From Candidatus Daviesbacteria bacterium (GTDB taxonomy: Bacteria > Patescibacteriota > Microgenomatia > Daviesbacterales > UBA10151): a DNA stretch of 64,000 bases. Below, piece by piece: positions 11,216-54,850 of this stretch. Every line of letters starts with the position of its first letter. Positions within the stretch are counted from its first letter, which is position 1. The translations under genes were made by a program, and so were the position numbers. The DNA lies in contig DAIDIY010000048.1 of assembly GCA_027451625.1 (NCBI GenBank), forward strand, positions 26,917 to 90,916, written 5' to 3'. Below the pieces are notes generated by a model. The model did no database searches. It was not told where the DNA came from and was given only the letters and a program-made list of their open reading frames with translations.

Positions 11216-11244
11216 ACTTAAAAATTAGATTTATTCATTTTATT

Positions 11245-12138: not shown

Positions 12139-12210
12139 CTTTATATTCCTTAGTAAGTTAAAAAAAACTTATCTAATTTAGGTAATAAATTCTATTTGTC
12201 TTACCCTCAA

Positions 12211-15609: not shown

Positions 15610-17952
15610 CTAAAGATTTGCCCTATGAGTAATCTCTGTTTCAACTTCTCCTACATCACGACCATATGTTAGTCGAGATAATTCCTTAATAGCTTGGGCA
15701 ATATTGGGATTTTTCATTGCATTCCAAGCATTAACATCAATTCCAACATTCATTGAAAATGGAGGGACAGGTTCTCCATGAACTTGGGTTTTAACATACA
15801 CGTGCCGAGCTTCAATATTTACCAAATCTTGTTCAGAAAATACCGGTGAGAACTCATGTTGTAAAAAGTTTGCATCTGTTACTCCTACTCGATAAGTCAT
15901 TAAAGTTCCAACATTACCAAAAATAGCATTCTTAATTTCTTCAGGCATCTGTCCTATAAACTGGTTAGCAACAATTAAGTTTAAATGGTACTTTCTAGCT
16001 TCAGACAAGATAGTAGCAAAAGTGTCCGTAGCAAAATTTTGAAACTCATCTACATACAAATAAAAATCTCTTCTTTGAGATTCTGGGACATCAGCTCTCG
16101 ACATCGCAGCAGCCAAAATTTTAGGAACTAAAATAAGTCCTAAGAAATTAGAATTTTCTTCTCCCATTCTTCCTTTCGAGAGATTAACAATTAAAATTTT
16201 TCCATTATCCATAATCTCTCGAAGATTGAACGAGGACTTACTCTGACCAATGATATTCCTTAACATTCTATTTGTGACAAAACGCCCAAATTTAGAAACT
16301 GTATAATCTAACACCTCGGATTTATGAAAATCGGCTGTATGAGCAATCTGATCAGTCCAATACCGCCTTACTATCGGATCAGTTACATAGGGTAAGAGCT
16401 CTTTAACATACTCAGGATCTTGCATTATTCTCATAACTTCAACAAAAGTATTTCCAGGAACAGACATGACTGTTAACATCGCATTTCTTACTCCATGCTC
16501 AAAACGAGGTCCAATAATTCCTGTTTTATGAGGGTCATATAGCTTATACATAAGACCTAAAATTTCAGTTGTGATGAAGTGTTTCTCATCTTCTGTTCTA
16601 GCATCAAGCATATTCATTCCAAAAGGTCGAGAAACATCACCTGGGTCAAAATAAACTACGTCTTGAGCTCTATTAGGAGGAATAAGCGATAACATCTCCT
16701 CAGCAGCATCACCGTGCGGATCGATAAAAGCTATTCCCTTACCCGATATAATATCTTGAAGCATTAAAGTCTTAAGTAGAGTGGTTTTACCTGTTCCAGT
16801 ACGTCCAATAATATACATATGTCGTTGGCGATCCTCCTCAGAGATATAAACAGGTCTTTGAGTACCTCGGAAAATAGATTTCCCTAAATAAAGACCTGAG
16901 GTAGGAATTTTCTCTGAGGCTGGAGCTGATCTTGCTGGCAACCAAGCTATATGAGGAGTTGTTATAGATTTATTGGGGAAGTGATAAATCGTGGCTATTT
17001 CTTCAGGGGTAAGAATCGGAATCTTGTGTAAAAGAGGAGTGTAGCGGTTGATAAAATCAGTAATAAACCCTTTTTCAGATGGCACTTTAGCACCACTGAA
17101 GCTATTATAAGGACCAGCAAACTGCTCAAATGAAGCCTTAATATTGGCAAGATGCGCCTTTGCACTATCCTTATTAATTGAAGAGGTAACTATCCTTATA
17201 GTCACAAAAAAACCAGGTTTAGAAATTTTATTTTCAACAGCTTCAAGTTGTTTAGTATCTGGAGGTGGTTTAGGATTATCGGGCTTACCAGGATCTTTTT
17301 CTTTTTTTATCCATTTTTTAGCTAAATCCTTCCATTTATTATCTGCAGGACTCATGATAAGCTGAACCGTAGCACCTTCCCCTTCTCCCATCTTAGCCAA
17401 GGCTGAAGTCATTGAACTTAATGGGTCTGTGGGTAAATCCTTATAAGTCTTTATTGGAAAATAATCAGATGATTTAAGATTATATTGAGCATAAGCGGTC
17501 TGTCCACCTTCTGAAAAAATATTATATTCTGGAACTTCTTTAATCTCAGCATCAGGATATGCACCATGGATCTGTTTTTCCACTAAATCTTGTAATGATT
17601 TATTAACACATATATAGAACTTTATTGACTCATGTAAAGCCACTATCTCAAAAGAAATTTGGTTTTGCATTTTTAGGCTCATAAAACCAGTATTTTTCTT
17701 TATCGAATTTAAGGCTGCAAAGAGTTGTTCCATTGCATCAATCTTAATCTCATTATCTTTAGGTACATTAACCTGGAGCACTATAGATTGCAAAGAATAC
17801 TTATCTCTACCTCGACTTCTCAACCAAGCAAAAAAATAATGGAAAAAAGAAACAGCTAGAATTACAAAAAGTCCAACCAAAAAGAATCCTCCAATAACTA
17901 AAGCTATAATAAGTGTTAAATCAGAGCCTCCTGTGGCTGTTGAAACTTCCAT
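15610..17952 (-). CDS. VirD4/TraG/TrwB-like type IV coupling-protein-family P-loop ATPase (or DUF87/HerA-like)
   Basis: N-terminal TM anchor; Walker A MYIIGRTGTGKTTLLK, then IAFIDPHGD, Walker B DFYLYVDEFQNF. 780 aa. Confidence 0.5.
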   Translation of the reverse strand: MEVSTATGGSDLTLIIALVIGGFFLVGLFVILAVSFFHYFFAWLRSRGRDKYSLQSIVLQVNVPKDNEIKIDAMEQLFAALNSIKKNTGFMSLKMQNQISFEIVALHESIKFYICVNKSLQDLVEKQIHGAYPDAEIKEVPEYNIFSEGGQTAYAQYNLKSSDYFPIKTYKDLPTDPLSSMTSALAKMGEGEGATVQLIMSPADNKWKDLAKKWIKKEKDPGKPDNPKPPPDTKQLEAVENKISKPGFFVTIRIVTSSINKDSAKAHLANIKASFEQFAGPYNSFSGAKVPSEKGFITDFINRYTPLLHKIPILTPEEIATIYHFPNKSITTPHIAWLPARSAPASEKIPTSGLYLGKSIFRGTQRPVYISEEDRQRHMYIIGRTGTGKTTLLKTLMLQDIISGKGIAFIDPHGDAAEEMLSLIPPNRAQDVVYFDPGDVSRPFGMNMLDARTEDEKHFITTEILGLMYKLYDPHKTGIIGPRFEHGVRNAMLTVMSVPGNTFVEVMRIMQDPEYVKELLPYVTDPIVRRYWTDQIAHTADFHKSEVLDYTVSKFGRFVTNRMLRNIIGQSKSSFNLREIMDNGKILIVNLSKGRMGEENSNFLGLILVPKILAAAMSRADVPESQRRDFYLYVDEFQNFATDTFATILSEARKYHLNLIVANQFIGQMPEEIKNAIFGNVGTLMTYRVGVTDANFLQHEFSPVFSEQDLVNIEARHVYVKTQVHGEPVPPFSMNVGIDVNAWNAMKNPNIAQAIKELSRLTYGRDVGEVETEITHRANL

Positions 17953-38192: not shown

Positions 38193-40031
38193 TCATTTAA
38201 TACGAACGTCAAAAAGTCGACTTTTAATCGAAATATTACCAGGAGCCCGAAGAGCAAAAATTGTCCAAAAATCTTTACACCCTCCACCTGGATGTGAGCA
38301 GTTAACATCAAACCCGGGAAGGGTAAGATCTCCTCGATCAGTTTGAAAAGTTACATCTGCTGTATATCCTCCTCCATTTTGAGAAACACTTACACCATTC
38401 ACACTACTATATGCCCCGCCTAATGCATTTGCTCTATCCTTCATTTGTGAAATTGAATACGGTGAACCTCCACCACAATTATCTGCAGGAAGGATATGGC
38501 TTTGGTCATCGCTTGTACCTTTAGTATAAACCACCCAAGCATTTAAAATATCGGTAATGTCTTCTTGTGAAAGCCATGGATTATTACGATCACATGTAGA
38601 AAATCCGCTTCCATAGCGATAATTGCTATACCATGCTTTATAGAACCAAGGGCTGGAAGAATCGTATGCCCCTCCTGATAAACAACCGCCGTTATTACAG
38701 GTTGTATCCCAACCTTTTGTATCCAAATATCCTCCAGGAGTAGAGACATATTGAGCCGAGACTCCATCGGGCAGAATCATCCCTTTTGTTTGATCAACAG
38801 CGTCTTTCCATGCTTGAGGAGGGTTTGCACCCTTACTTGCATCATATACTTGGCAGTGATCGCTGGTACATATAGTAGATCCACTTTGAATATAGTGGTA
38901 AGCATATGTTCGCGCAGCTATTGCTTGAGCTTTAAGAGCCGCTAAATTATTATCTGTCCAGGAAGCAGGCATCTCAGCTATACCATATAAATACTGTGTC
39001 TCAAAAGGCATAGTCCCTTGATCTGTATTAATTGTAGCTGGCATACTTCGCTGTATAGGAGTAGATCCGTAATATGCCTGAAGTATTGCATTATAGTCTT
39101 GGCCTGCCTTAGCTCTTGCCCAAGCTCCATACTGACTCATTCCATTTCTGCGGAAATTAGAACCATTTCCAGCATAAGCTCCAAAAGAAAATACAGTCAC
39201 AGAGCCAGAAGGTGCATTAGATTGCCAGCCAGACAATGATGCATTTGGGTCATCAGCCAAAGCCGCACTCCCTACAGAAACATTAAAATTTCCTGATTTA
39301 GCTGCTATTAAAGATTGTTGTTGTGCTGTAAGACTCGCTATCTTTGTTTCTAAATCCTTTTGGTATGCCTTAGCTGTAGTAATTACACCTCCCAAATACT
39401 GAGCATTTTTATCTACTTGAGCTTGAAAGGAAGCAAGACTTGCTTTGTCTTTTTCCAGTTTAGCCTTTTCATTTGCTAAATTAACCATATCTAAGGTTAC
39501 ACTGCCAATGACTCTTTGATCTTCTGCTGTCGTTGCTTGACTATAAGTCATCTCTCTTATTAGATCACCTGTATTATTAGATGAAAGAAGCATTATTAGT
39601 GGGTTAACTAAAAAAGATTGAATATAATATGCTCTAACCCTAGAATCAAGGAGTACTTGCTGTGTTGCCAGTTTATCCTCACGAACTTTAATATCCTCTT
39701 CCCTTTGACCTATCTGATCTGACAGATTATTTAATCTGATCTGTATTTGATTGAGTTGAACTTTTATCGCTTCCAGTTGACCTTCTAAAGGTTTGGTTGC
39801 ATTTATAGAATTTTGCAGATTGGTATTTAGTTGGTTAATTTCTTGTCCAATCGATTGTATGCATTGATCTGATGTATCGTTACATGTTGTATCAGCCCAA
39901 ATTAAATGGATAGGTGTAAAAAAAGAAATCAAGCCGATCATTAAGGAGAAAGCAAATATGGTTACAATTCTTTTTTTATATATTTTAGAAAACAACTTAT
40001 CTAGATGCATAAAAGACAAATGAGGATGCAT
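38193..40031 (-). CDS. SpoIID/LytB-domain protein with N-terminal coiled-coil (EnvC-like architecture); probable cell-wall remodelling enzyme
   Basis: N-terminal signal/TM, a long coiled-coil (aa 60-230), then NGMSQYGAWARAKAGQDYNAILQAYYGS matching the SpoIID/LytB signature (GMSQxGAxxMAxxGxxYxxILxHYYxG). Confidence 0.5.
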   Translation of the reverse strand: MHPHLSFMHLDKLFSKIYKKRIVTIFAFSLMIGLISFFTPIHLIWADTTCNDTSDQCIQSIGQEINQLNTNLQNSINATKPLEGQLEAIKVQLNQIQIRLNNLSDQIGQREEDIKVREDKLATQQVLLDSRVRAYYIQSFLVNPLIMLLSSNNTGDLIREMTYSQATTAEDQRVIGSVTLDMVNLANEKAKLEKDKASLASFQAQVDKNAQYLGGVITTAKAYQKDLETKIASLTAQQQSLIAAKSGNFNVSVGSAALADDPNASLSGWQSNAPSGSVTVFSFGAYAGNGSNFRRNGMSQYGAWARAKAGQDYNAILQAYYGSTPIQRSMPATINTDQGTMPFETQYLYGIAEMPASWTDNNLAALKAQAIAARTYAYHYIQSGSTICTSDHCQVYDASKGANPPQAWKDAVDQTKGMILPDGVSAQYVSTPGGYLDTKGWDTTCNNGGCLSGGAYDSSSPWFYKAWYSNYRYGSGFSTCDRNNPWLSQEDITDILNAWVVYTKGTSDDQSHILPADNCGGGSPYSISQMKDRANALGGAYSSVNGVSVSQNGGGYTADVTFQTDRGDLTLPGFDVNCSHPGGGCKDFWTIFALRAPGNISIKSRLFDVRIK

Positions 40032-40097
40032 ATTAAAATTTTACCACAGTAATCACTTACTAGACACTTATATCCAGCCTGAGATATTCTATTATTA

Positions 40098-42041
40098 ATG
40101 ATTCCCATTAAAAAGTACTTAAAAGTATCTGCTATATTAATCGTTCTTATGATGTTTTTTTCGATCTTTCCCAAAAAAGTTAAAGCTGATAATAATTTTA
40201 GTTATTCTCAATACTTTGGGACTCTCAATCAAATCTCAACTTCTGGAATAAAGGTTACAATTACAAATAATGCTGGCGACTTTGCATCTGGTTCAGATAT
40301 TTCTTATGCATGGGGTTTGTCTTATAATGGATCCCCGATTGATGTAGAAAACTCTATTCCCCAGATAAGTGGTAACACAATTACTGTTGATATTTATTCA
40401 TCATATTTTCAATGGTACGGCGCTGGGAACTACCAATTTTCATTATGGGTTGGAAAGTTTGGACAACCTCCTGATTATAATTCATCAAGTGCAAGTTATA
40501 TTATTCACAATAAAACAATCGTCTTCAAACAAGTTTGTCCTTCCAATACAGGATGTAGTGATGATGCGACTTTTAGCAACAACTCTTCTCCAATAAAAGT
40601 AGTTATTGGAGAAAATACAATGCCTAAGATAACAGTCAACAACCTTTATGATTACAATAGCTATTATTTTTGGTGGATTGATGGAAATAATAATTTAGAA
40701 AATTCTGGTTATAGCCTTGTAAATCCAGGTGAACAAACCGAACAAGTAGTAGGGGTTAACGCACCCAATTCTTTGCTTTCAAATGCATATGAAAATAGTA
40801 GCAATGCAAAATCTGTGACTTTATATCTTTGTATAACAACAGATTCGACAGGCATTCCTCCAACTTCTTCTGGATGTATAAATAAACAACAATTTGAATT
40901 TGATCCTCCATCAATCTACCCCTACCCCAACCCCATACAGATAAATCAACCTGCACAAGTATTAATCAGTTTTGGGGGAGTAGGAACTAATTACACATTC
41001 GTGCCGACATCTGGGTTCGGGTATCTCCTAAACTCAAACTCTCCAACACGAGATGGATCCTTTGTGATCCCAATAGGCACATTTTCTCAACCGGGGAATC
41101 CTTCATATTGTATGATTATAAATTCTGGAGCAAATCAAATAGGCGATGATCAAAATTGTCAATTTAAAGTAACATTTAATGTTCAGGCGTCTCCAAGCAC
41201 ATCTACAAATCTTCCTTGTGGACCCACAAGTTCGGCTTCTATATCTTTATACTCAGATGGTCAACAAACATCAACTCTAGAAATAAACAAATCAGGGAGT
41301 ATTGACTGGAATAATATTTGCATTCCCTCTCCGCAAGATGTAATTAAAATCTTTAAAACAGATTCTTCTGGGAATAATTTAGGTGACCCAGTCTTTTATA
41401 CCTATGTTGATTGTAAAAATGTGACAACAGGGCAACAAGACGATCCAAACATAGGTGATAGTCCCCTACCTTCAGGAAATTGTTCAGTAGGACCTTTTAC
41501 AGACACAGGAAACTATAAAGCTTATTATGTGTCTATTTTCTATCAAAACAACCCTCTAGCTTCTTTTCCATTCGTAGTTACCTTACCTAATACGCCTACA
41601 GTAACTACATCTCCTCAGTCTTTAACATCAGCTCCTCCTGCTCCAGTTGTTTCTAATTCTACCGGACAATTATGTAATGTAAAAACAGGTAAGTATTATA
41701 ATGGCTCACCAAGTAACCCAACTCCTCTGACTTTAGACGATATACCAAATCCAGCAGATAGAGGAGTTTATACTGCAGTAGGATGTGTTCCAACAGATCC
41801 AGCTATTTTTATAAATAACCTATTAAGAGTAGCAATTGGAGCGGGAGGTGGAATAGCACTTCTACTTATGGTAAGAGGTGTGTTTGAGATTATGGGTTCA
41901 GCTGGCAATCAAGAAGCAGTACATAAAGGTCGAGATCAACTTATTTCAGCGGGTATTGGACTCCTATTTATAATTTTTGCAGTCCTCCTTCTCAAATTCA
42001 TCGGAATTAATATATTGCAAATTCCGGGATTTTCTTCTTAA
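40098..42041 (+). CDS. large secreted Ser/Thr/Asn-rich protein ending in a VirB2/TrbC-like pilin module (pilin-fusion adhesin candidate)
   Basis: Signal peptide MIPIKKYLKVSAILIVLMMFFSIFPKKVKA. About 560 aa of low-complexity extracellular sequence. C-terminal 75 aa (LRVAIGAGGGIALLLMVRGVFEIMGSAGNQEAVHKGRDQLISAGIGLLFIIFAVLLL) has the same helix/GxxxE charged loop/helix pattern as the next four genes. Confidence 0.55.
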   Translation: MIPIKKYLKVSAILIVLMMFFSIFPKKVKADNNFSYSQYFGTLNQISTSGIKVTITNNAGDFASGSDISYAWGLSYNGSPIDVENSIPQISGNTITVDIYSSYFQWYGAGNYQFSLWVGKFGQPPDYNSSSASYIIHNKTIVFKQVCPSNTGCSDDATFSNNSSPIKVVIGENTMPKITVNNLYDYNSYYFWWIDGNNNLENSGYSLVNPGEQTEQVVGVNAPNSLLSNAYENSSNAKSVTLYLCITTDSTGIPPTSSGCINKQQFEFDPPSIYPYPNPIQINQPAQVLISFGGVGTNYTFVPTSGFGYLLNSNSPTRDGSFVIPIGTFSQPGNPSYCMIINSGANQIGDDQNCQFKVTFNVQASPSTSTNLPCGPTSSASISLYSDGQQTSTLEINKSGSIDWNNICIPSPQDVIKIFKTDSSGNNLGDPVFYTYVDCKNVTTGQQDDPNIGDSPLPSGNCSVGPFTDTGNYKAYYVSIFYQNNPLASFPFVVTLPNTPTVTTSPQSLTSAPPAPVVSNSTGQLCNVKTGKYYNGSPSNPTPLTLDDIPNPADRGVYTAVGCVPTDPAIFINNLLRVAIGAGGGIALLLMVRGVFEIMGSAGNQEAVHKGRDQLISAGIGLLFIIFAVLLLKFIGINILQIPGFSS

Positions 42042-42102
42042 TAAAATACTAATTTCTCTTTACTGTCTTGCCTAGAAAAATTTAAAAGATTAGTATGTTC
42101 TT

Positions 42103-42786
42103 ATGTTATCATTTTTGAGTAATACAGCTTACGCTCAGACATTAAAAATTCCTGGACTAGATCAAATTAAAGGTCCCCTAACTAATACAAATCGACCTTT
42201 TGATACTCCGGGAGGAGTTATCACAACAGGTTTAGATATTTTTTTTACAGTCATGACTTTTATTGCCTTTTTATGGATGATCTGGGGAGCTATTGCATAC
42301 ATATTTGCTGCTGGGGAGAAGGAAGCATTATCTAAAGCTAAAAATCGAATATTCGCTGCTTTAATAGGATTGTTTATAATTGCTTTATCTTATACAGCCA
42401 CCCAATTAATTTTTCAAATACTACAGCCTAATGTTCCTAATCCACTATCTCTTAGCATTATTCAACCTGTTTATGCACAAGCATCAACAGGTTATGGTTC
42501 AGATTTGAGTAAAACATATGCTTTTGGTAATTTCTTAGATTTTGGTAGCATTACTGCATTAATTATGCCTTTTATTTTCTCTATAGCTACTACTGGAGTA
42601 GTTATATACTTTCTAATTGGAGCTTTTAGATTTGTTATCTCAGCTGGTAATAAAGAATCAATAAGTAAAGCACAGTCAATGATTACCCATGCAGTAATTG
42701 GATTCTTTATTTTGATATTTATTTTTCTGATATTTCAATTTATTCCGCAATTTTTCGGTTTTAAGTTTAGTGTATTTGGCCAGTAG
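42103..42786 (+). CDS. VirB2/TrbC-like pilin-fold protein, internal tandem duplication (two modules)
   Basis: Module 1 FFTVMTFIAFLWMIWGAIAYIFAAGEKEALSKAKNRIFAALIGLFIIALSY. Module 2 FIFSIATTGVVIYFLIGAFRFVISAGNKESISKAQSMITHAVIGFFILIFIFLIF. Confidence 0.55.
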   Translation: MLSFLSNTAYAQTLKIPGLDQIKGPLTNTNRPFDTPGGVITTGLDIFFTVMTFIAFLWMIWGAIAYIFAAGEKEALSKAKNRIFAALIGLFIIALSYTATQLIFQILQPNVPNPLSLSIIQPVYAQASTGYGSDLSKTYAFGNFLDFGSITALIMPFIFSIATTGVVIYFLIGAFRFVISAGNKESISKAQSMITHAVIGFFILIFIFLIFQFIPQFFGFKFSVFGQ

Positions 42787-42834
42787 TTAACTTAAATATT
42801 TTATAAACAAAAATGTTAAGATTTAAAATCTAAA

Positions 42835-43371
42835 ATGACAAAAAAACTTTTAGTTTTATCTGTTTTTATAGTAGTCTTTTTTTTGGCTATTCCAAACAAC
42901 GTTTATGCTTGCAGTGGGCCTGGAGATTGTCCTGCTGGTGAATATTGCAACACTAGTAACCCTCCGGGAGAATGCCAGTCTGTCTTAGGACATATTAGTC
43001 CTCCCCAAGCTATTTCGAATATAGGTTACGGGTCTCAGGGTATTGGACACTTCTTAAGCCAGCTTATTCAACTTTTATATGTTGCTGCAGCAATTGTCTT
43101 TGTTTTTATGATCCTTTGGAGTGCATTTCAATGGATAATGTCAGCAGGAGATAAAGAAAAGCTAAACGCAGTAAGGAGCAGAATGATACATGCTATTATC
43201 GGTATAGCTCTTCTTGCAGCCGCTTTTGTAATAATTAGATTTTTCGGACAGGTTACAGGGTTTCATTTCTTCCAAGGACAAGAAAATCCAGACTTCTCTC
43301 TTCCTACACCTACTCCTTGTTTAATGTTTGTTCCAGGAGCAGGTCAATTGACTCCTCAGCCTTGTTCCTAA
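42835..43371 (+). CDS. VirB2/TrbC-like pilin-fold protein with Cys-rich N-terminal segment
   Basis: Signal peptide; CSGPGDCPAGEYCNTSNPPGEC; then LLYVAAAIVFVFMILWSAFQWIMSAGDKEKLNAVRSRMIHAIIGIALLAAAFVII. Confidence 0.55.
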   Translation: MTKKLLVLSVFIVVFFLAIPNNVYACSGPGDCPAGEYCNTSNPPGECQSVLGHISPPQAISNIGYGSQGIGHFLSQLIQLLYVAAAIVFVFMILWSAFQWIMSAGDKEKLNAVRSRMIHAIIGIALLAAAFVIIRFFGQVTGFHFFQGQENPDFSLPTPTPCLMFVPGAGQLTPQPCS

Positions 43372-43450
43372 ATTAAGTTTATATGCCTAATCTTTAGGTT
43401 CACTAGGACGAACTATTGACAAGGTACGTTAATCAATCTAAGATTAAATC

Positions 43451-43804
43451 ATGACTCCTACACCTACAGAATCACCAGCAACCACCATAGCAATTCAACC
43501 CCCAAGTGGTGTTGGAATAAGTCCTACTTATTCTATTAGCAGTTTATTCCACAATATCATAGGTTTATTTTTCGTAGTAGGTGCAATACTTGTAATATAC
43601 AATTTAATCATGGGTGCTTTTGATTGGATATTATCAGGTGGAGATAAGGAAAAAATAAGTGCTGCGAGAAATAAAATTATAAATGCTTTAATTGGTTTTG
43701 CCATACTTGCCGTTGCTTTTGTAATACTCAACTTTACTGGAAAATTAATTAATATTGATATTTCAAATCTTAATGTACCTAAATTAGGAAATCCTCCCTC
43801 TTAA
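43451..43804 (+). CDS. VirB2/TrbC-like pilin-fold protein
   Basis: IIGLFFVVGAILVIYNLIMGAFDWILSGGDKEKISAARNKIINALIGFAILAVAFVIL. Confidence 0.55.
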   Translation: MTPTPTESPATTIAIQPPSGVGISPTYSISSLFHNIIGLFFVVGAILVIYNLIMGAFDWILSGGDKEKISAARNKIINALIGFAILAVAFVILNFTGKLINIDISNLNVPKLGNPPS

Positions 43805-43870
43805 ATTTCTTCAACGATATAAACTAAGTTAGTTGTCAAAAATAAATATCTAATTTATTATTATTGTGAT

Positions 43871-44179
43871 ATGCAAGCCGCAGCAGGAATCGAGGATTTA
43901 CAAGCTTTAATTCAAAGAATTCTAGGATTAGTAGTAATTGGAGCATTCTTAGTTCTCTTATTCCTCTTCCTTTCAGCTGGATTCAAATATTTAACTTCAG
44001 GAGGAGAACCCAAAGGAGTTCAGTCAGCCCATAACACATATACATGGGCATTAATAGGTATCGCCCTTTTACTAATCGTATTTGTAGCCTTACGGTTAAT
44101 TTCTTCCTTTACCGGAGTAGATGTTACCAAGTTTTGTTTAGGTTTCCCTGGCTTGGAGAGTACTACTTCATGCTTTTAA
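43871..44179 (+). CDS. VirB2/TrbC-like pilin-fold protein
   Basis: LVVIGAFLVLLFLFLSAGFKYLTSGGEPKGVQSAHNTYTWALIGIALLLIVFVAL. Confidence 0.5.
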   Translation: MQAAAGIEDLQALIQRILGLVVIGAFLVLLFLFLSAGFKYLTSGGEPKGVQSAHNTYTWALIGIALLLIVFVALRLISSFTGVDVTKFCLGFPGLESTTSCF

Positions 44180-44970
44180 AATTAATTTCATCTGTAGTAA
44201 TAATAATTTTTATTTTTATTCCCCTTACAGTCTTTGCAGATCAAGCAAGCTCTCCATATAGTTCTCCTGGACCGACACAAGAATCACTTCCAAGCCCGAC
44301 TCTTCCCCCCGTCGATGCTTCAAAATTAGATAACGATTTTGTACTTACCAAAGTAGTTAACAAAGCTACTCTCCCTAATCTAGCAGATAGCATCACTCCA
44401 TCTTTATTTCCTTCTCCTGCTACTCAAATAGGTCTTGAAGAAAATAGTAGCTTCTTATCTTGGATAAACCAGTTTGCCTGTAGTATAGGAACTTTTATAG
44501 ATCAAATTATAGGAGGAACATTCTGCCGAGATCAATTAATCCTAGCCGCAAACAAAGGAGATCAATTTGCATCCAATGCAAGTATTGAAGCTCAATCTCA
44601 AAGGCCGTTTGATATAACGATTACTCCGATCTGGAAAAATCCTGGTCTAAAAGATTCTCCCAACCAAACAACTGGAGATAAAGATCTAACTAATATCAAT
44701 AATTCACAGGGAACATCCGTGGGTATTTATTCGCTAAACATGCCTCAACTAAAAGGAATTGATTGCCCAACTCCTCCATCCCCAGATACAAACTCACTTA
44801 ACAACGATAGTCAATATTATGCTTCTAATGGAGCTCTAACAGTTGGTGGTAATATAATTTCAGACTGTAGACTACCTGACACAAATGCTAGACGGAACGA
44901 GTACAATCAAGCAAACTTTCCTCCAGGGGTTGATCCAACTAATAAATTCATAACTCCTACACCTCCTTAG
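44170..44970 (+). CDS. secreted hypothetical protein (signal peptide)
   Basis: Start moved to the internal ATG at 44170 (MLLKLISSVVIIIFIFIPLTVFADQ...). The track ORF from 44044 would overlap the preceding pilin gene by 136 nt in another frame. Confidence 0.45.
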   Translation: MLLKLISSVVIIIFIFIPLTVFADQASSPYSSPGPTQESLPSPTLPPVDASKLDNDFVLTKVVNKATLPNLADSITPSLFPSPATQIGLEENSSFLSWINQFACSIGTFIDQIIGGTFCRDQLILAANKGDQFASNASIEAQSQRPFDITITPIWKNPGLKDSPNQTTGDKDLTNINNSQGTSVGIYSLNMPQLKGIDCPTPPSPDTNSLNNDSQYYASNGALTVGGNIISDCRLPDTNARRNEYNQANFPPGVDPTNKFITPTPP

Positions 44971-45058
44971 ATTTTGATTTAAACTCTTAGATACTTAACT
45001 CATCAAAAAATATGATTTTCCTTCTACACAAAAAATACAAATTATGTACAATTAAATT

Positions 45059-46792
45059 ATGCTTTCTGCCCGAGTATTAATTCTTTTATTCCTAACATTT
45101 ATATATTTAGTATTTACCAAAAATATTTATGCTGTCTCTCCTATCCCAACTCCGACAGATGATATAGCTCCAGGATCTATAATATTTAATAATTTTTCTC
45201 AAGATGCTTCAAAATATACGGTTCCTCCAACCCCAACACCGAATAGTACTTCAAGTTCTACCAACTCTGTTCCTGCTACATCTCAAAATTGGGGAGCAGC
45301 GCAACAAGCTCCTTTTACTCTAGACAATATGATGGGCGGAACTATTTGTTTCTTAGGAGGATTTGATCCATACGGCGCATGTCCAGTACAAAATGGTCCT
45401 TTAGTAAATGGACGAATTCAAGTTATGCTTTATAATCAAATTCCTGGAGATGGTGCTATTGGAGCTGCCAATAACTTAATGATCTCTTTATATAATCATC
45501 CTCCGACCTCAACCTCTTATTATTTAGCAAACTTGGGTAATTCAATCGGCATTACGAATACAGCTTATGCTGCATCTGGACCTGATCAAGGTTCTGGTTC
45601 GAGCCTAATTGTTCCTGTTTATAAAATATGGACATTCACCAGAAATATGGCTTACGTATTGATTATTTTTATAATTATAGCTGTTGGATTTATGATTATG
45701 TTCAGAAGCAAGATAAACCCGCAAACTACAATATCTATACAGTCAGCGATACCACGAATAGTAATAAGCTTGGCACTTATCACTTTCAGCTATTTCATTG
45801 CATCTTTATTAATTGACATATCTTTTTTTGGTGTTCAAATAATAGCTCAACTTTTTCTTCAAGCTCAGAATCAAGCAGGCGCTAATAATGCTTTTGATGT
45901 GAATAGTGTAGCTAACAATTCTAACATATTTCAATTATTGTCGATCGCTCAATCTCAGAGCTGGAATGTGGGTGAGATTATGACAGCTATCTGGAATGTA
46001 ACTTTAAATGCAGCCGGAAATAATTTTGCACAGATCGGTCATACAGGGAACATCGCTGGAGCAATAGGTTCAATTGTCACTGGATTAATTTTAGGAGTCG
46101 GAGGGTTAATAGGAGGAACTTTGGGAGGAATACTTATACCTCTTATACTTATGATAGTATTTTTTATTCAGACATTCAGACTTTTATGGAGCCTCCTTAA
46201 TGCATACATTACTATTCTTATATACACAGTGATTGGCCCGTTCCTAATTCTATATTCTGCTATTCCTGGGAAAGGAGGAGTTTTGACAAACTGGTGGAAA
46301 ACCATTTTAGGAAATTCGCTAATTTTTCCAGCTGTTATAGCCGTATTTTTATTTTCCGGTGTCATTCTAGGAACGCCTTCTACTGATTGGAATGGTGCTC
46401 GTCCTCCACTTTTGAATTTTGACAGCGGAGAGATATTAAGACTGGTAATCTCATACGGACTTCTTATCGGTCTACCTGCTATTCCCGGGATGGTCAAAGA
46501 ATTACTAGGTATTAAAGATATTCAAGGTATCCCTGGAGCAGCTATGGCTGGAGCTATGGCTGGGGTTGGAGTAGTTCAAGCGGGAGTCAATCTAACACAA
46601 ATTCCAGCTACTATTCAACAACGAAGACTTGCATGGAGTAGATACAACGCTGGAGTCGATAACGCTCCCGCTCCAAGAACTAGAACTGGTGCGACAGGTA
46701 GATATGCATTTATAAGGAATCTTCCATCCAACATTGTTGACTTGTTCGGTGGACAAGGTAATGGAACTGGTGGTGGCGGTGCGTCACACTAA
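45059..46792 (+). CDS. VirB6/TrbL-like polytopic membrane protein (candidate T4SS channel component)
   Basis: Signal peptide, ~150-aa extracellular segment, then at least six TM helices (aa 190-470), then a Gly-rich tail. Size and topology resemble VirB6/TrbL. No sequence motif, so assignment is by architecture and context. Confidence 0.4.
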   Translation: MLSARVLILLFLTFIYLVFTKNIYAVSPIPTPTDDIAPGSIIFNNFSQDASKYTVPPTPTPNSTSSSTNSVPATSQNWGAAQQAPFTLDNMMGGTICFLGGFDPYGACPVQNGPLVNGRIQVMLYNQIPGDGAIGAANNLMISLYNHPPTSTSYYLANLGNSIGITNTAYAASGPDQGSGSSLIVPVYKIWTFTRNMAYVLIIFIIIAVGFMIMFRSKINPQTTISIQSAIPRIVISLALITFSYFIASLLIDISFFGVQIIAQLFLQAQNQAGANNAFDVNSVANNSNIFQLLSIAQSQSWNVGEIMTAIWNVTLNAAGNNFAQIGHTGNIAGAIGSIVTGLILGVGGLIGGTLGGILIPLILMIVFFIQTFRLLWSLLNAYITILIYTVIGPFLILYSAIPGKGGVLTNWWKTILGNSLIFPAVIAVFLFSGVILGTPSTDWNGARPPLLNFDSGEILRLVISYGLLIGLPAIPGMVKELLGIKDIQGIPGAAMAGAMAGVGVVQAGVNLTQIPATIQQRRLAWSRYNAGVDNAPAPRTRTGATGRYAFIRNLPSNIVDLFGGQGNGTGGGGASH

Positions 46793-46797
46793 ATAAA

Positions 46798-49110
46798 CTA
46801 ATGATGTCTCGCAGCAGGGGCGCTACCCATTGATGACCTAATCATAGCCCATATAAGTTCGAATAAGACGCCTCTTAAATTTAACCTTGTTGCAAGAATA
46901 TCTAGAGCGATCAATGATTCAAATCCTTTATTCTCAATGACTTTATCCCAGGCATTTCTAATTTCAGTTTCATCAAGTCTCATCTGTCGCCCTCTTTGAG
47001 CAACCATTAAATCCAGAGAAGACATCGAAGGTCTGGCGATATGCATGACGTGCTGACCCTCGTGAGTCTGCTCAAATCCTGCTAAATTAACCAGCATGTT
47101 CCGTATATTGCTAAACTGACCTGCACCTTGGTTAAAAAACAATCCCCCAAATTTAACCATTCCTTCTTCGCTGGGATTTGCTAAATAACCTTCACCTGAC
47201 TCTGCTTGTGACCTTATCTGATCAGGAATCAGAACCCGAGGAGCTAGTTTAAAAGAAGGTCCTTCAATAAGCTTAAAATCAAAAAGTCTAATTCTACCAT
47301 CATCAGATTTAAATGCCGAATTTATTGATGAATCCTCTATTACTTCTTCAATAAAGCTTTTCCTTTCTTTCAGATCATCTGGAGATATATTTAAAGAATT
47401 AAGATCTTCTATACGAAAAATTGTATTTTGTAAAGATAAAGATATACCTGAAGGCCATTTATAATCACCCCCATCCATTCTTCCTTTCACACCAAATATA
47501 GCATAGGTATAATTGGCTGCCATCTCAGCAGGATTCTTTTTACCAGCAACTGCAAACCTTTTTGATAAACTTTTATATAAGTCTTCAGGCAAAAGACTAA
47601 AAAAATCTCTATTATTAAAATCTACACCTTTTACTAATTCATAATACATTCTATATTTTGAATGTCCAGCACGATATCCTAATCTTGCTTTAATATTTAA
47701 ATTTCTAGCAGTATAAGAACCAGTGCCTTCCATCTCTACTCCGTACCAATCTAAGCTTCTTCCTGTATTTAAAAATTTAATCATTTCCTCTTCAGCTTTT
47801 GGATCATTGGGATCAAAAATGCGAGTAACTCCCTTTTCATCCACTCCAACCAATTTTTCATGATAATATTTTCTAAAATCCATCTCCCATTTTCTCTCAG
47901 CTATTCTCATAGCTGACTCTAAAGCAGCTTTCATATAAAATGCATGTCTGCTTTTCTCTTTATCAGATAGGTCTTTATCCGGTCTCCCTTTCTCCCAATT
48001 AGCAAAAACCTCATTTTCTATCTCTTCTCTCATCTTCTCCTTTGCACTGTTATCTTTTTTAATAAAATCTCCAGCATGCCTTTCTAAAGCTTGATAGAAA
48101 TGGAACACTAGAAGAGGTGAATTATTAGTAAGGTCATAATTTTTTTTATTACCTTCCGAATCTTTATAGCTGAACTTATATGCATCAGGAGCATCGACCA
48201 TTAAAAAATTAAGCTGATCATTATATTGTGAACCTATCGCACCGACTATTCCTTGTGTGTCTTTAGCTTGATAAAACTGAACGTACGCTTGATGAAAATG
48301 AAGTCTCCTATAAAATTCTCTATACATTGCATCACCTAAATGCTTCAACCGATAGCGGCGTTCATCATACTCATCATCACTTTCTTCGTTTTGTATAGGT
48401 TCTCCATCAGGACCGGATCTTTCACCAGGCTTAAATTTAGGAACAACCTCTGTTGTTCCTGATCCAATAGATACAGTTTTTTCACCTAGACCGGGAAGTC
48501 TTATCTTTTCTTCTACTTTAAGACTTTGCATAAGAGGTAAAACCAAAATAAATTCATTCAATCTCCTCCTATTAGATTGATCTCCTTCGGGAGCTAGACT
48601 CGACTCAATTTTATTCAATAACTCTCTCATCTCCGCAATTTTTGCCTCATCATCTCTTGGAAGATAGATATCTCGCGGGTAACCCACTTCAGACACAATA
48701 GTAAATCTTTCCCATTCTCCCTCTCTCATCTCCTCTGCAGATTTTGTCGCTTCGGAAGAAATTGACCTCGTAAAAGATTGTGCTAAAGCGGAAGCCTGTT
48801 GTTGTCTTCTAAAAGCTTCTGTCAATCGTAACTGTATCTCACTTTGTGCTTGCTGTTGTATCTGTTGGCGTAAAGCTATATCTGCTTGCATTTGTTGCTC
48901 TGCAGTCATCTCACTCATTCGATTCCGATATTCAGGAGTAGAAGTATGTTGTTGATATAATTGATCCACTCTACTATTTAAACTCCCGAATGCATCAATA
49001 TTTTCAAAAGTTTCAGACTCCTCTCTCCCCACATTCTCTTGAGGATTAGTATGCTCTGCGGGGTTAGGTGGATTCGATTCAGGATTATCCATTGGTCGTT
49101 CTAAAGACAT
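46798..49110 (-). CDS. hypothetical large soluble protein (770 aa)
   Basis: Acidic, no TM, N-terminal coiled-coil or Gln-rich region. No recognisable catalytic motif. Sits on the opposite strand inside the T4SS-like locus. Confidence 0.4.
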   Translation of the reverse strand: MSLERPMDNPESNPPNPAEHTNPQENVGREESETFENIDAFGSLNSRVDQLYQQHTSTPEYRNRMSEMTAEQQMQADIALRQQIQQQAQSEIQLRLTEAFRRQQQASALAQSFTRSISSEATKSAEEMREGEWERFTIVSEVGYPRDIYLPRDDEAKIAEMRELLNKIESSLAPEGDQSNRRRLNEFILVLPLMQSLKVEEKIRLPGLGEKTVSIGSGTTEVVPKFKPGERSGPDGEPIQNEESDDEYDERRYRLKHLGDAMYREFYRRLHFHQAYVQFYQAKDTQGIVGAIGSQYNDQLNFLMVDAPDAYKFSYKDSEGNKKNYDLTNNSPLLVFHFYQALERHAGDFIKKDNSAKEKMREEIENEVFANWEKGRPDKDLSDKEKSRHAFYMKAALESAMRIAERKWEMDFRKYYHEKLVGVDEKGVTRIFDPNDPKAEEEMIKFLNTGRSLDWYGVEMEGTGSYTARNLNIKARLGYRAGHSKYRMYYELVKGVDFNNRDFFSLLPEDLYKSLSKRFAVAGKKNPAEMAANYTYAIFGVKGRMDGGDYKWPSGISLSLQNTIFRIEDLNSLNISPDDLKERKSFIEEVIEDSSINSAFKSDDGRIRLFDFKLIEGPSFKLAPRVLIPDQIRSQAESGEGYLANPSEEGMVKFGGLFFNQGAGQFSNIRNMLVNLAGFEQTHEGQHVMHIARPSMSSLDLMVAQRGRQMRLDETEIRNAWDKVIENKGFESLIALDILATRLNLRGVLFELIWAMIRSSMGSAPAARHH

Positions 49111-50988: not shown

Positions 50989-52146
50989 ATGGATGCACAT
51001 CCTGTCCCACAAAATGTGACTTCTTTTGAGTTCCACCTGGTTGGAGATATGACTCTAAAGCAATTTGGATATCTTGCAACGGGGTTAATTATTGCCTATA
51101 TCACATTCTTATTTTTTTTTAATAACCTTCCGTATGTAGCAACTCCAATTATTGCTATCTCTGCTGGATTAGGAGCAGCTTTTGCCTTTTTGCCCATCTA
51201 TAATCGTCCTTTAGATCACTGGGTAAACGTCTTCTTTCATGCTATATTCTCTCCTACCCAGAGAGCATGGAGAACCCCAACAGACAAACCAATACCAAAT
51301 GACCTAAGAGCTGAATTAATTAAAAACCGCCTTCATCTTTTTATGCAAAGCACTGCCATACCCCAATCCTCCTATGGAACACCATTTCCTTCTAACTCTG
51401 CATCTATTAATTTAAGACGTCTACCTATAAATACCCACCCAAACTTAAATTTTCCTTCACACCCTAACTCTTCTAATAAACCTGAACCATCTCAAAATCA
51501 AACCTTAAAACCGACTAAAACAGGCTCGACAACCTCTAAGATGCCTACCCCTGAGGAACTAAACCACTTAGTAGAAATGGCCCGACAGACCCAAATGCTT
51601 CAGAGTAAAACTCTCGAATTGGAAAAAGAGCTCTCCCAACTTAAGTCTTTGCTTGCATTACAATCTACAAAAGGATCTTCTCCTGTTCAGCTGTCACAAA
51701 CAGGATCAGTAGTTCAGCAAGCTGGATCACAATTAAATCAATTGCAAAAACAGGCCATACAAGTTGCACAGCAAAAAGTTCAACCTCCAATCCCTAACCC
51801 AACTCCTCCTGCTAAACCCCCTAAAGTCGTGATAATAGAGCCTCCAAAACAAACAAAAACAGTAATTGCCTTAACATCGCTACCCAATATTATTAACGGT
51901 ATTATTACAGATACAGTCGGAAATTATCTCGAAAATGTAATTGTCATAATTCATAATCAGGATAACCTACCAGTCAGGGCTTTAAAAACCAATAAACTTG
52001 GCCAGTTCACAGGAGCCACGCCGTTACCTTCTGGTGTTTACACTATTACAATGGAAAAGGAAGGATTTGATTTTGACACATTACAAATAACTCTAAACAA
52101 CCAGATTGTTCCACCAATTAAAGTTACGGCAAAAAAAGGAGGTTAA
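50989..52146 (+). CDS. VirB10/TrbI-like architecture: TM anchor, Pro-rich linker, coiled-coil, C-terminal beta domain
   Basis: Two TM helices (aa 35-75); Pro-rich aa 100-290; coiled-coil (LEKELSQLKSLLALQ); C-terminal domain GIITDTVGNYLENVIVIIHN...GVYTITMEKEGF resembling a carboxypeptidase-regulatory or Cna-B-like beta-sandwich. Directly precedes VirB4. Confidence 0.35.
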   Translation: MDAHPVPQNVTSFEFHLVGDMTLKQFGYLATGLIIAYITFLFFFNNLPYVATPIIAISAGLGAAFAFLPIYNRPLDHWVNVFFHAIFSPTQRAWRTPTDKPIPNDLRAELIKNRLHLFMQSTAIPQSSYGTPFPSNSASINLRRLPINTHPNLNFPSHPNSSNKPEPSQNQTLKPTKTGSTTSKMPTPEELNHLVEMARQTQMLQSKTLELEKELSQLKSLLALQSTKGSSPVQLSQTGSVVQQAGSQLNQLQKQAIQVAQQKVQPPIPNPTPPAKPPKVVIIEPPKQTKTVIALTSLPNIINGIITDTVGNYLENVIVIIHNQDNLPVRALKTNKLGQFTGATPLPSGVYTITMEKEGFDFDTLQITLNNQIVPPIKVTAKKGG

Positions 52147-53136
52147 ATGTTCTCTACTCAACAAGCTATATTAATCGAGGACATTAAAGATGATCTAATA
52201 TTTTTAAAAGATGGCGGCGCATCCTTAATTCTCAATACTACTGCTGTTAATTTCGGTTTACTTTTTGAGACAGAGCAAATGGCTATTATCGATGCTTTCG
52301 CTCAACTGTTAAACTCTCTTTCATTCCCAATACAAATTGTTATTCGCTCAAAAAAAATGGATATCTCTTCATACCTTAGCACACTTGAGAGAGCTTTAAA
52401 GTCACAAACTAACCAACTCCTCGCTCAACTAACTCTAGATTACCGGAATTTTGTTGAAGGATTAATTAAGGAAAACGATGTACTCGATAAACAATTCTAT
52501 GTTTGCCTTTATGTTTCAGCAATCGAAATGGGAATTTTACCTAAACAACAAACTGATAGGAGTAGAAAAGCTAAAGCAATGCTAGAAACAAGAAGAGATT
52601 TAATATTAAGGCAACTGAACAGAATTGGGCTCAAAGCGAGACAGCTTGCAACAGCTGAGTTAATTAATCTCTTTTATGATATCTATAACCCAGATAATTG
52701 GTACTTCTCCACTGATGACGAAAGTGTAGTCGATCCTGAAGCAGAAAGAAAAGAAAACGAATTACAAACGTCAACTCCCAACATACCTTCACAACTCAAA
52801 CGAATTGTTCCTCAAACACCTATTGTTCAACACACACTTCAAAGTAACCTCCAATTAAGACCGATACCTCAACTCGTTCAACATCAATCACATCTAGAAC
52901 CTAGATCTCCACTACAACAAAATTCTACCCCTCTTTCTCAAAACAACCCACAAGCTACAAATATATTTCAAAAACCTCAAATTCCATTTCAAATACCAGT
53001 TAATGGGCCTACAGTAAATCCTTTACCTCCAATAAAACAAAATCCACCAAATAGCCAACAGCCATCGCAGAACAATTCGATAAATAGGGCCTCTCCGTTT
53101 ATAGTTGAAGAACTAAAAGATGACTTTGGATCCTAA
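52147..53136 (+). CDS. VirB4/TrbE/CagE N-terminal domain protein (first part of a split VirB4) with Gln/Pro-rich tail
   Basis: N-terminus AILIEDIKDDLIFLKDGGASLILNTTAVNFGLLFETEQMAIIDAFAQLLNSLSFPIQIVIRS matches the VirB4/CagE_TrbE_VirB N-domain. Residues ~230-329 are Q/P-rich. Overlaps the next ORF by 17 nt in another frame. Confidence 0.6.
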   Translation: MFSTQQAILIEDIKDDLIFLKDGGASLILNTTAVNFGLLFETEQMAIIDAFAQLLNSLSFPIQIVIRSKKMDISSYLSTLERALKSQTNQLLAQLTLDYRNFVEGLIKENDVLDKQFYVCLYVSAIEMGILPKQQTDRSRKAKAMLETRRDLILRQLNRIGLKARQLATAELINLFYDIYNPDNWYFSTDDESVVDPEAERKENELQTSTPNIPSQLKRIVPQTPIVQHTLQSNLQLRPIPQLVQHQSHLEPRSPLQQNSTPLSQNNPQATNIFQKPQIPFQIPVNGPTVNPLPPIKQNPPNSQQPSQNNSINRASPFIVEELKDDFGS

Positions 53137-54850
53137 ACCTAAAATAGATCTTACATTGCAAGATGTCGTTGCCCCTGCTGAATGGGAGGTAGATTTTTCA
53201 CACCTACGGATCAATCAAACTCTTTTTAGAAGCTTTATAGTTACTTCATATCCAAGATTCGTTGATCCAAATTGGTTAGAACCACTAATTGCGTTTGACC
53301 ATTCACTTACCATTTCTATGTTTATTTATCCAACTAACTCCGCTGGTGTTATGGATGACTTAAAAAGAAAAATTGCAGAGATGGAGGCAACTCTCCAATC
53401 AGATTTAGATAGAGGCAGAGCTGTTGATCCGTCTGTTGAAGTTGCCTTAGAAGACGCAGAAGCTCTACAAGACCAATTGGCAAGAGGTACAGAGAGATTC
53501 TTTCAATATTCTTTGTATGTAACAGTACCTGCAAAAAATAAAACTGAACTTAATAACATATCACAGCTTGTAACATCAACTTTGAGAAGCATTTCAATTA
53601 CGGCATATCCATCTGTTTTGGAAATGGAAGATGGTTTCAAGTCAACTCTTCCAGTAGGAGAAGATATGCTATATGTTCCTCATAATATGGATACCACTTC
53701 TTTAGCCACTACGTTTCCATTTACTTCCTCTGAATTAACATCGCCCCAAGGAGTAGTTTATGGAATTAATGAGCATAATGATTCCTTAATAATCTTTGAT
53801 AGATTCAGCCAAGAAAATGCTAATTCAACAATTCTTGCTACCTCTGGAGCTGGAAAATCGTATCTGGTCAAACTAGAAACACTGCGATCTCTAATGTTAG
53901 GTACAGAGGTCATTGTTATTGATCCTGAGCGTGAATACTTAAAACTTGCTCAAGCTGTCGGAGGAGATTATATAAATTTCTCCACGAACTCTCCCATAAA
54001 GATTAATCCATTTGATCTTCCAGAAGTCGCAGACCAAGGAGAAAACGAACTGGGGAGAAAGATACTGTCATTAAGTGGCTTCCTAAAACTAGTATTAGGA
54101 GAACTTACCCCCCAAGAGTCAGCCATTTTAGATCGAGCTTTAAATACTACATATAGAATTAAAGGTATTACTGAAGATACTAGAACACAAATGGGAAAAA
54201 AGGATACTGAAATGCCACTAATGGAAGATCTATATAAAGTACTTTTGGGCATGGAGGATCAAGTATCAACAGGACTGGCGGTCCGACTTGAAAGATTCAT
54301 CAGAGGATCGCTTGCGGGAATTTTCTCTGCTCCATCAAATTTAAGAATTTCCAACCTACTGACAATCTTTTCTGTCCGTGATTTACCAGAACAACTTCGG
54401 CCTCTAGCAATGCATCTAATTTTAGATTACATTTGGACTAAGATTAGGAAGGAACAAAAAAAGCGGATATTGGTTGTTGATGAAGCATGGTATCTGATGA
54501 AATATCCTGACTCTGCCAGCTTTCTAGTTGAAATGGTAAAAAGGGCTAGAAAGTATTTTCTTGGAGTAACTACAATCAGCCAGGATGTTGAAGATTTCTT
54601 AGAAAGAGATCATGGAAAAGAGGTTATCTCAAACTCATCAATGCAAGTTTTACTTAAACAAGCGCCTGCATCAATTGAAAGGATAGGTGAAACATTCAAT
54701 CTCTCTCAAGGAGAAAAAAGGCTATTACTTTCATCTGGAGTCGGACAGGGCTTATTTTTTGCTGGTAATACTCATGTCGCGATGAGAGTAGTTGCTTCTC
54801 CAAAGGAACACCAATTAGTTACAACTAATCCCACTGAATATCAAAACTAA
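53120..54850 (+). CDS. virB4: VirB4-family type IV secretion ATPase (C-terminal catalytic part)
   Basis: Walker A ILATSGAGKSYLVK; Walker B RILVVDEAWYLM; downstream GVTTISQDVEDF; upstream FRSFIVTSYPRFVDPNWL. Confidence 0.8.
   Translation: MTLDPKPKIDLTLQDVVAPAEWEVDFSHLRINQTLFRSFIVTSYPRFVDPNWLEPLIAFDHSLTISMFIYPTNSAGVMDDLKRKIAEMEATLQSDLDRGRAVDPSVEVALEDAEALQDQLARGTERFFQYSLYVTVPAKNKTELNNISQLVTSTLRSISITAYPSVLEMEDGFKSTLPVGEDMLYVPHNMDTTSLATTFPFTSSELTSPQGVVYGINEHNDSLIIFDRFSQENANSTILATSGAGKSYLVKLETLRSLMLGTEVIVIDPEREYLKLAQAVGGDYINFSTNSPIKINPFDLPEVADQGENELGRKILSLSGFLKLVLGELTPQESAILDRALNTTYRIKGITEDTRTQMGKKDTEMPLMEDLYKVLLGMEDQVSTGLAVRLERFIRGSLAGIFSAPSNLRISNLLTIFSVRDLPEQLRPLAMHLILDYIWTKIRKEQKKRILVVDEAWYLMKYPDSASFLVEMVKRARKYFLGVTTISQDVEDFLERDHGKEVISNSSMQVLLKQAPASIERIGETFNLSQGEKRLLLSSGVGQGLFFAGNTHVAMRVVASPKEHQLVTTNPTEYQN

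Follow-up and report, generated by a model that had tools for sequence, protein, structure and literature searches.

A tandem array of PF18895 pilin-family genes in a Candidatus Daviesbacteria contig and its possible role as a set of specialised type IV secretion subunits

Why would one locus encode several pilin-like proteins in a row, and do they act together or stand in for one another? The question is raised by a 64,000-nucleotide stretch of a Candidatus Daviesbacteria contig (DAIDIY010000048.1, positions 26,917 to 90,916 of the forward strand; hereafter the window, in whose numbering all coordinates are given), where an array of pilin-family genes lies in a type IV secretion system (T4SS) locus. 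According to the list of open reading frames (ORFs) and an alignment, the array at 40098-44179 consists of five consecutive plus-strand ORFs with six copies of one module. Its genes, called g0 to g4 here, are as follows (a slash marks the end of a signal peptide or of a motif of that type):

40098..42041, + strand: g0, the "long pilin", 647 aa; PF18895 23.2 bits, E 7.4e-5; signal peptide at residues 1-30 (...KVKA/DNNF), S/T/N-rich ectodomain of ~540 aa with 12 Cys, junction TAVGCVPTDP, module at residues ~557-647
42103..42786, + strand: g1, two-module pilin, 227 aa; PF18895 30.2 bits in two stretches; no N-terminal signal peptide, loop 1 AGEKEA, linker 108-146 with V123-Y124-A125/Q, loop 2 AGNKES
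42835..43371, + strand: g2, pilin, 178 aa; PF18895 35.7 bits, E 9.4e-9; signal peptide (...NVYA/CSG), extracellular 4-Cys knob, module with loop AGDKEK, P/T-rich C-tail with 2 Cys
43451..43804, + strand: g3, pilin, 117 aa; PF18895 30.7 bits; no signal peptide, T/P-rich N-tail, module with loop GGDKEK
43871..44179, + strand: g4, the shortest and most divergent pilin, 102 aa; PF18895 26.1 bits, E 9e-6; loop GGEPKG, Cys pair in the C-tail

Six modules of one pilin family

An earlier reading of the same DNA (the original prediction) had placed five consecutive VirB2/TrbC-like genes in 42103-44179. The four ORFs of this interval lie on the plus strand exactly where that reading had put them, and all five of the loops that it listed, from AGEKEA to GGEPKG, were located in the sequence. 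The interval itself holds four genes and five modules; the counts of five and six are reached when g0 is added, whose last 90 aa form the sixth module (loop SAGNQEA) upstream of the interval. Sequence analysis confirmed that g1 carries the module twice, and the Cys-rich extracellular segment proposed for g2 was found as a stretch with four Cys behind a signal peptide. No gaps were needed to align the six modules over a core of 77 residues, in which they are 18-42% identical, and PF18895 E-values across the array genes range from about 1e-5 to 1e-9; the resemblance among the modules is well above chance. With a hidden Markov model (HMM) built from the six modules only, no further ORF of the window was matched, and arrays of 4-9 genes were found in independent Patescibacteria loci.

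The family in question is PF18895 (T4SS_pilin), with a gathering cut-off of 26.6 bits. g1, g2 and g3 exceed this cut-off, g4 and g0 fall just under it with E-values that are still significant, and the domain is carried by all 109 of the 109 homologues retrieved; the homologues of the pilins bear the names Daviesbacteria, Microgenomates or Patescibacteria. Significant matches below the cut-off were also obtained with NF045849 (NCBIfam, Mbov_0395 pilin-like conjugal transfer protein), which is the best NCBIfam match of g1, g3 and g4. The match of g1 covers both modules (33.6 bits, E 2.2e-8), and all scores are at or below 33.6 bits against an equivalog cut-off of 40 bits; the array proteins are homologous to NF045849 but are not members of it.

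The label "VirB2/TrbC-like" used in the original prediction stands insofar as PF18895, topology and T4SS gene context place the proteins in a T4SS pilin family, and is unproven as a claim of direct TrbC/VirB2 homology. No protein of the window matches the Pfam TrbC/VirB2 model (PF04956) at E<=1, and eight of the 109 relatives match it weakly (best E 3.2e-4). Comparison by hhalign of the family alignment with eight authentic VirB2/TrbC proteins from annotated plasmids, a small template alignment that covers alphaproteobacteria only, gave 3.6% probability (E 0.012), and on these grounds membership of the array proteins in PF04956 was dropped. A profile of the six modules found no match among PDB sequences even at E<=10, and fold searches returned generic helical hairpins only. 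The same family is termed "VirB2-like pilins" in PMC12102498; we use "VirB2-like" for this array as a functional analogy, and assign the genes to PF18895 and to the pilin arrays of Patescibacteria.

By hydropathy, the module is a helix-loop-helix hairpin of ~75 residues with two strongly hydrophobic helices of 23-32 residues each, giving two such helices per protein and four in g1. In the AlphaFold2 (AF2) model of g3 the helices span residues 29-60 and 66-99 with pLDDT >90, and the AF2 model of g1 contains two hairpins (helices 36-67 and 73-107, then 147-179 and 184-218) joined by a disordered linker at 108-146. The density of K/R is 0.13-0.29 per residue in the loops (0.07 in g4) and 0-0.09 in the tails, and every Cys is located in the tails; by the positive-inside rule, these features imply a predicted N-out/C-out topology and a loop that faces the cytoplasm, as in VirB2/TraA propilins. 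Signal-peptide and transmembrane (TM) analysis, a check that the original prediction had proposed, gave an arrangement compatible with pilins: two TM helices joined by a K/R-rich loop, with the tails that carry Cys on the outside. Cleavable signal peptides were found in g0 and g2, and none in g1, g3 and g4. An upstream signal peptide for g1 or g3 was considered and is ruled out by in-frame stops directly upstream and by gaps of 61 and 79 nt.

Arrays of this kind have been described in 2023-2025 in Patescibacteria (CPR), which are ultrasmall bacteria. Quinonero-Coronel et al. 2025 (PMC12102498) reported 441 arrays of 2-11 VirB2-like pilin genes near dnaA, with a within-array identity of 25% on average and 54% at most, which are most abundant in Microgenomatia and Saccharimonadia; the T4SSs concerned have an MPF_FATA-like VirB4, TrsD and PrgI, often stand beside dnaA/dnaN and are without relaxase (PMC12102498). 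An array was defined there as at least two pilin genes in tandem or one gene apart, at most 20 coding sequences (CDS) from virB4 (PMC12102498); here, the five genes are consecutive and virB4 is the seventh CDS downstream. The window and the published arrays have in common PF18895, the tandem order, low identity (18-42%), TrsD/PrgI/VirB4, dnaN/dnaA and no relaxase nearby: genes for PrgI, a TrsD-like protein and VirB4 lie 7-9 kb downstream of the array, and dnaN, dnaA and yidC follow downstream of VirB4. In the Patescibacteria metagenome-assembled genomes (MAGs) L001-L004, the arrays of 4-9 pilin genes likewise stand beside a polytopic protein. The array is an instance of the published Patescibacteria pilin arrays, with no difference in kind.

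Positional orthology, the fused pilin g1 and the ectodomain of g0

A syntenic Logan contig (L008) was used as relative, in which a long, a two-module, a Cys-knob, a plain and a short terminal pilin are followed by a polytopic protein, PrgI and TrsD. The window genes are 49-59% identical to their positional counterparts in L008, and the scores of positional orthologue versus best paralog were 175 vs 59, 117 vs 70, 97 vs 62 and 89 vs 47 bits; g2 is 49% identical to its counterpart h2, with the four Cys kept. g4 best matches the gene at the end of the array in L001 (72 bits), L003 (54), L004 (48) and L008 (86), and the module of g0 best matches the first gene of L004. Middle members of such arrays look duplicated in a lineage-specific manner (genes 4/5 in L003 and 5-7 in L004). 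Within the window, g2 and g3 are the closest paralogs (42% core identity), and they also hold the sole DNA-level repeat of the array, 122 nt at 70%, which rules out a recent duplication or gene conversion. As judged from sequence comparison, the paralogs predate these lineages and keep distinct identities.

In Southlakia epibionticum, a pilin series equivalent to this array (SEML1_0006-0019) was found to be essential (Wang et al. 2023, PMC10633639; review PMC12857230). The 1:1 positional orthology and this reported essentiality favour specialised, non-redundant subunits over interchangeable antigenic variants. The original prediction had offered antigenic or functional diversification, or major and minor pilins; the major/minor or functional options fit better, and antigenic variation fits poorly with 1:1 orthologues and with the lack of near-identical repeats in the array.

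The two modules of g1 had been described as an internal tandem duplication. Both modules are present, and the event is not recent: the two halves are 26% identical (BLASTP half versus half, E 4e-6), and the second half is nearer to g2 and g3 than to its own first half, which indicates that g1 is, by sequence, an old fusion of two diverged paralogs. A HMMER scan with g1 over 1.84 billion representatives gave 3,191 matches at E<=1e-3, so that this single query reached more than 3,000 clusters at 50% identity, and about two dozen of the proteins found, of roughly 210-250 aa, span both g1 modules. The conserved subfamily to which g1 belongs comprises at least 24 clusters. Some of these two-module homologues are only ~25-30% identical to g1 and the linker is otherwise variable, yet a linker motif [AV][YH]A is kept in 23 of 24 two-module proteins and small-x-small in 24 of 24. 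Residues 108-125 of g1, the linker stretch up to the motif, correspond to 42424-42477 of the window. The motif is of the same type as the signal-peptide c-region of single-module relatives (e.g., ...AFA/Q and ...VFA/A), and this conserved motif, together with the disordered linker of the AF2 model, points to a possible cleavage of g1 into two pilins by signal peptidase I. Two observations speak against such a cleavage, namely that the motif lies ~17-25 residues past the preceding helix and that the linkers of the multi-module proteins P0170, P0159 and P0256 have no motif of this type. The start of g1 itself, MLSFLSNTAYA/QT, resembles a c-region that lacks its h-region, as do the starts of several single-module relatives (MKEVLAA..., MKDVFAA..., MIKDAFAQ...).

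Proteins with fused modules also exist outside the window. At least two modules were found in 74 of the best 150 of the 3,191 matches to g1, arranged head-to-tail with a period of ~85-90 aa; P0150 has eight modules in 820 aa, P0159 seven in 606 aa, and P0170, P0147 and P0277 six each, and many others have 3-5. The main text of PMC12102498 contains no mention of fused pilins or "poly-pilins".

g0 joins its module to an ectodomain that has no homologue among 5.8 billion proteins. In the comparison of g0 with its positional orthologue h0 of L008, only the C-terminal 90 aa are conserved (59%). The same architecture occurs in L006, L009 and P0133; the ectodomain of g0 is unrelated to those of h0, L006 and P0133, although these proteins share with it the junction TA[VI]GC[VI]P[TN]D and the module. 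Within the array, hypervariability is confined to this ectodomain. An orphan, hypervariable ectodomain on a conserved junction and module is what one would expect of an adhesin domain or of one for contact with the host, and suggests that g0 is a candidate adhesin or tip subunit. If so, the hypervariable surface domain of g0 could determine host specificity.

The main texts of PMC12102498, PMC10633639 and PMC12857230 contain no mention of a two-module pilin with an AXA-type linker, of an ectodomain pilin in first position or of 1:1 positional orthology. These are modest new details: a fused two-unit pilin, a first pilin of adhesin type and orthology by position refine a described system and do not make a new one. 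If they hold, they would serve as a guide to which subunit to tag, knock down or model with regard to a monoderm pilus and to host attachment or feeding.

What the array may build

We consider it reasonably likely that the array encodes T4SS pilins which act as old, specialised subunits of a monoderm-type chromosomal T4SS. The modules would enter the cytoplasmic membrane via Sec/YidC; as the sequence-based topology predicts, the loop rich in K/R would face the cytoplasm and the two termini the outside. By analogy with VirB2/TraA pili, VirB4, TrsD and PrgI, together with the protein in VirB6 position, might then extract the modules and build an extracellular tube or stalk that touches the host bacterium. 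In such a structure the non-interchangeable paralogs would be ordered and heteromeric, the putative subunits being a g0-type pilin with a hypervariable ectodomain (adhesin or tip), a two-module, a Cys-knob, a plain shaft-type and a conserved terminal pilin. It is possible, although on balance doubtful, that PF18895 modules are built for covalent or stoichiometric coupling, such that cleavage of g1, fused modules and array order would give an ordered heteromeric conduit. If this were true, TM2 of the first module of g1 would serve as internal signal sequence, and two different pilins would result from the cleavage at a fixed 1:1 ratio; the Patescibacteria "pilus" would be a conduit whose composition is defined and which has a hypervariable adhesin-pilin at its top, and not a homopolymer of one major pilin.

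Several points weigh against a pilus of specialised subunits. Monoderm conjugative T4SSs are, to our knowledge, normally without pili. A pilus made of PF18895 proteins has never been seen, the proposed assembly outside the membrane being an analogy, and the review in PMC12857230 handles pilus formation as a possibility only. The putative tip, shaft and base roles are read solely from architecture and conservation. Polypeptides with up to eight fused modules sit uneasily with a simple homopolymeric pilus and could point to a membrane-embedded assembly. In a rival reading, "pilin" would be a misnomer and the modules would be membrane-resident translocon hairpins, forming a ring or channel like ATPase c-rings or the FliPQR gate, or as anchors for ectodomains. 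We think this unlikely, given that Pfam and NCBIfam both tie the family to pilin-like conjugation proteins, that PF04956 is touched by some relatives (8 of 109), and that topology, size and the lumen-type basic loop resemble VirB2/TraA; the many paralogs per locus and the more than 3,000 clusters also fit a polymer subunit more readily than a fixed component of a channel.

Another reading would make the paralogs interchangeable major pilins for antigenic or host-range variation, expressed according to cell or condition, which would fit different host strains or evade recognition by host or phage. The idea was raised for Patescibacteria in PMC12102498, and it accords with the low identity of the paralogs (18-42%), with the lineage-specific duplication of middle members, with the hypervariable g0 ectodomain and with promoter-like hexamers found right before g3 and g4, their overall counts being at chance. 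A promoter and terminator scan of 39900-47000 gave counts at chance level and so says nothing on operon structure. What makes interchangeable pilins quite unlikely is that the paralogs have distinct, conserved architectures with 1:1 positional orthologues at ~50% identity in L008, that the end positions of the array are conserved in distant relatives and that S. epibionticum was reported to need the array as a whole (PMC10633639). The array contains no long and similar DNA repeats on which gene conversion or cassette switching could act, and the covalent fusion of two different modules implies co-use, not alternation. In TM7x, the genes of the equivalent array were at first taken for six putative effectors, of which three are up-regulated in stable symbiosis (bioRxiv 10.1101/2022.03.25.485537), and signal peptides are present in two of the five array genes here; that the array proteins are Sec-secreted effectors delivered by the T4SS is nevertheless very improbable, since every protein has strongly hydrophobic helices and would be membrane-integral rather than soluble cargo, and the TM7x array has been re-identified as VirB2-like pilins (PMC12102498). 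Specialised pilin subunits remain the reading that we prefer. The role of the T4SS and its pilin array in epibiotic life has been called completely unknown, even though both are essential to that life in the one Patescibacterium that was genetically tested (PMC11665869, PMC10633639).

TrbC/VirB2 proteins (PF04956; A. tumefaciens VirB2, RP4 TrbC) share with the array the two-helix hairpin of ~75 residues, the basic loop, the N-out/C-out topology, in many members a cleavable signal peptide ending AXA/Q, and a T4SS locus beside VirB3/VirB4 homologues. In contrast to VirB2, whose loop has ~5 residues, the array loop has 14 with a SGGDKE...KAR motif, several array paralogs lack a signal peptide, and the array system is without VirB5 or outer-membrane components and belongs to a monoderm host. 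We know of no multi-module or ectodomain fusions in VirB2. Mbov_0395 of mycoplasma integrative and conjugative elements (ICEs) is likewise a two-helix protein, of 80 residues, from a monoderm conjugative element; it belongs to a mobile element with conjugation genes, whereas the system here is chromosomal and relaxase-less. The NF045849 matches hint at pilin-like hairpins in Mollicutes conjugative elements, which bears on the published claim that MPF_FATA lacks VirB2-like pilins. The VirB2 paralogs of Bartonella and Anaplasma (cited in PMC12102498) are also multiple, divergent tandem pilins in a host-interaction T4SS; unlike the window paralogs, which are architecturally distinct and positionally orthologous, they are true PF04956 VirB2 proteins of diderm pathogens, for which a role in antigenic variation has been proposed.

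The T4SS locus and the rest of the window

The genes around the array were characterised as follows:

15610..17952, - strand: VirD4-like coupling-protein homologue, 780 aa, HerA/DUF87 and TrwB_AAD_bind P-loop (PF01935 E 2.1e-7; PF10412 E 2.2e-6)
38193..40031, - strand: secreted protein with PcsB-like coiled coil and SpoIID (lytic transglycosylase) domain (PF08486 59.9 bits; PF24568 E 1.2e-3)
44170..44970, + strand: secreted P/S/T-rich protein, no function assigned (ORF list and hydropathy)
45059..46792, + strand: polytopic membrane protein in VirB6/PrgH position (signal peptide and ~6 TM helices by hydropathy)
46798-49110, - strand: large ORF of 770 aa, no Pfam or NCBIfam match
49256-50629, - strand: large ORF of 457 aa, no Pfam or NCBIfam match
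50989..52146, + strand: PrgI (VirB3-like) with a C-terminal CarboxypepD_reg beta-sandwich (PF12666 27.2 bits; PF13620 32.2 bits)
52147..53136, + strand: TrsD-like protein, akin to the VirB4 N-terminus (E 5.9e-5 to the N-terminal part of PF11130, TraC_F_IV)
53120..54850, + strand: VirB4 ATPase, monoderm (MPF_FATA-like) type (PF19044 84.5 bits; PDB 4AG5 E 2.7e-49)
54856-57387, + strand: large ORF of 843 aa, no Pfam or NCBIfam match

The VirB4 protein has its best match in the Gram-positive Thermoanaerobacter VirB4 (4AG5), at E 2.7e-49 versus E 4e-4 for TrwK. A frameshifted virB4 was considered for 52147-53136 and 53120-54850 and rejected, a separate TrsD-like gene before virB4 being the norm in Patescibacteria; TrsD adjoining virB4 is the commonest T4SS component in this group (PMC12102498). 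PrgI is 43% identical to h9 of L008. The polytopic protein is 32% identical to h6 of L008, and its relatives (30-35% identity) adjoin pilin arrays, all in Patescibacteria/Microgenomates MAGs. An identity as VirB6 found no Pfam, NCBIfam or PDB match, and the protein was kept as a positional analogue only; it is a candidate channel or pilus-assembly platform. The locus is described as a chromosomal monoderm-type T4SS of Patescibacteria, as judged from relatives, and probably of Microgenomatia.

Directly behind the array, the probable start of the secreted P/S/T-rich protein is Met43 of the ORF 44044-44970, which gives the signal peptide MLLKLISSVVIIIFIFIPLTVFA/DQ. It has no Pfam or NCBIfam match, and a signal-peptide protein stands at the equivalent position of L008; by its position the protein may be part of the T4SS. 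In L008, a MazE-PIN toxin-antitoxin pair (L008 3932-4584), which is absent from the window, lies between the array and the gene in VirB6 position. The SpoIID protein, upstream of g0 and divergently transcribed, is a possible VirB1-type cell-wall hydrolase of the system. The three large ORFs without domain matches could be fast-evolving components of the system or its cargo; L008 genes of 708 and 416 aa share position and orientation with large ORFs of the locus, without BLASTP similarity. The VirD4-like gene lies ~25 kb from the array and its link to the T4SS is uncertain; a distant location is consistent with Patescibacteria type IV coupling protein homologues, which are rarely near virB4 and usually far away (PMC12102498). 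A Pfam scan of 49 ORFs gave no relaxase domain; the nine unscanned ORFs of at least 100 aa are all shorter than 250 aa.

Elsewhere in the window, the chromosomal stretch upstream of the T4SS genes holds an IS-type transposase (HTH and rve_3; 33856-34533, - strand) and a tyrosine recombinase of the XerC/D type (14293-15159, + strand). Three ORFs at 10544-13467 (- strand) carry split ATP-citrate lyase/citryl-CoA domains (ATP-grasp_2 and Citrate_bind; CoA_binding and Succ_CoA_lig; the C-terminal part of Citrate_synt), and such ATP-citrate lyase-type genes are unexpected for a metabolically reduced Patescibacterium. A phosphoglycerate kinase (PGK) ORF at 3549-4529 (- strand) has 326 aa versus the 379 positions of the PGK profile, which it matches in two stretches, and may be truncated or internally deleted.

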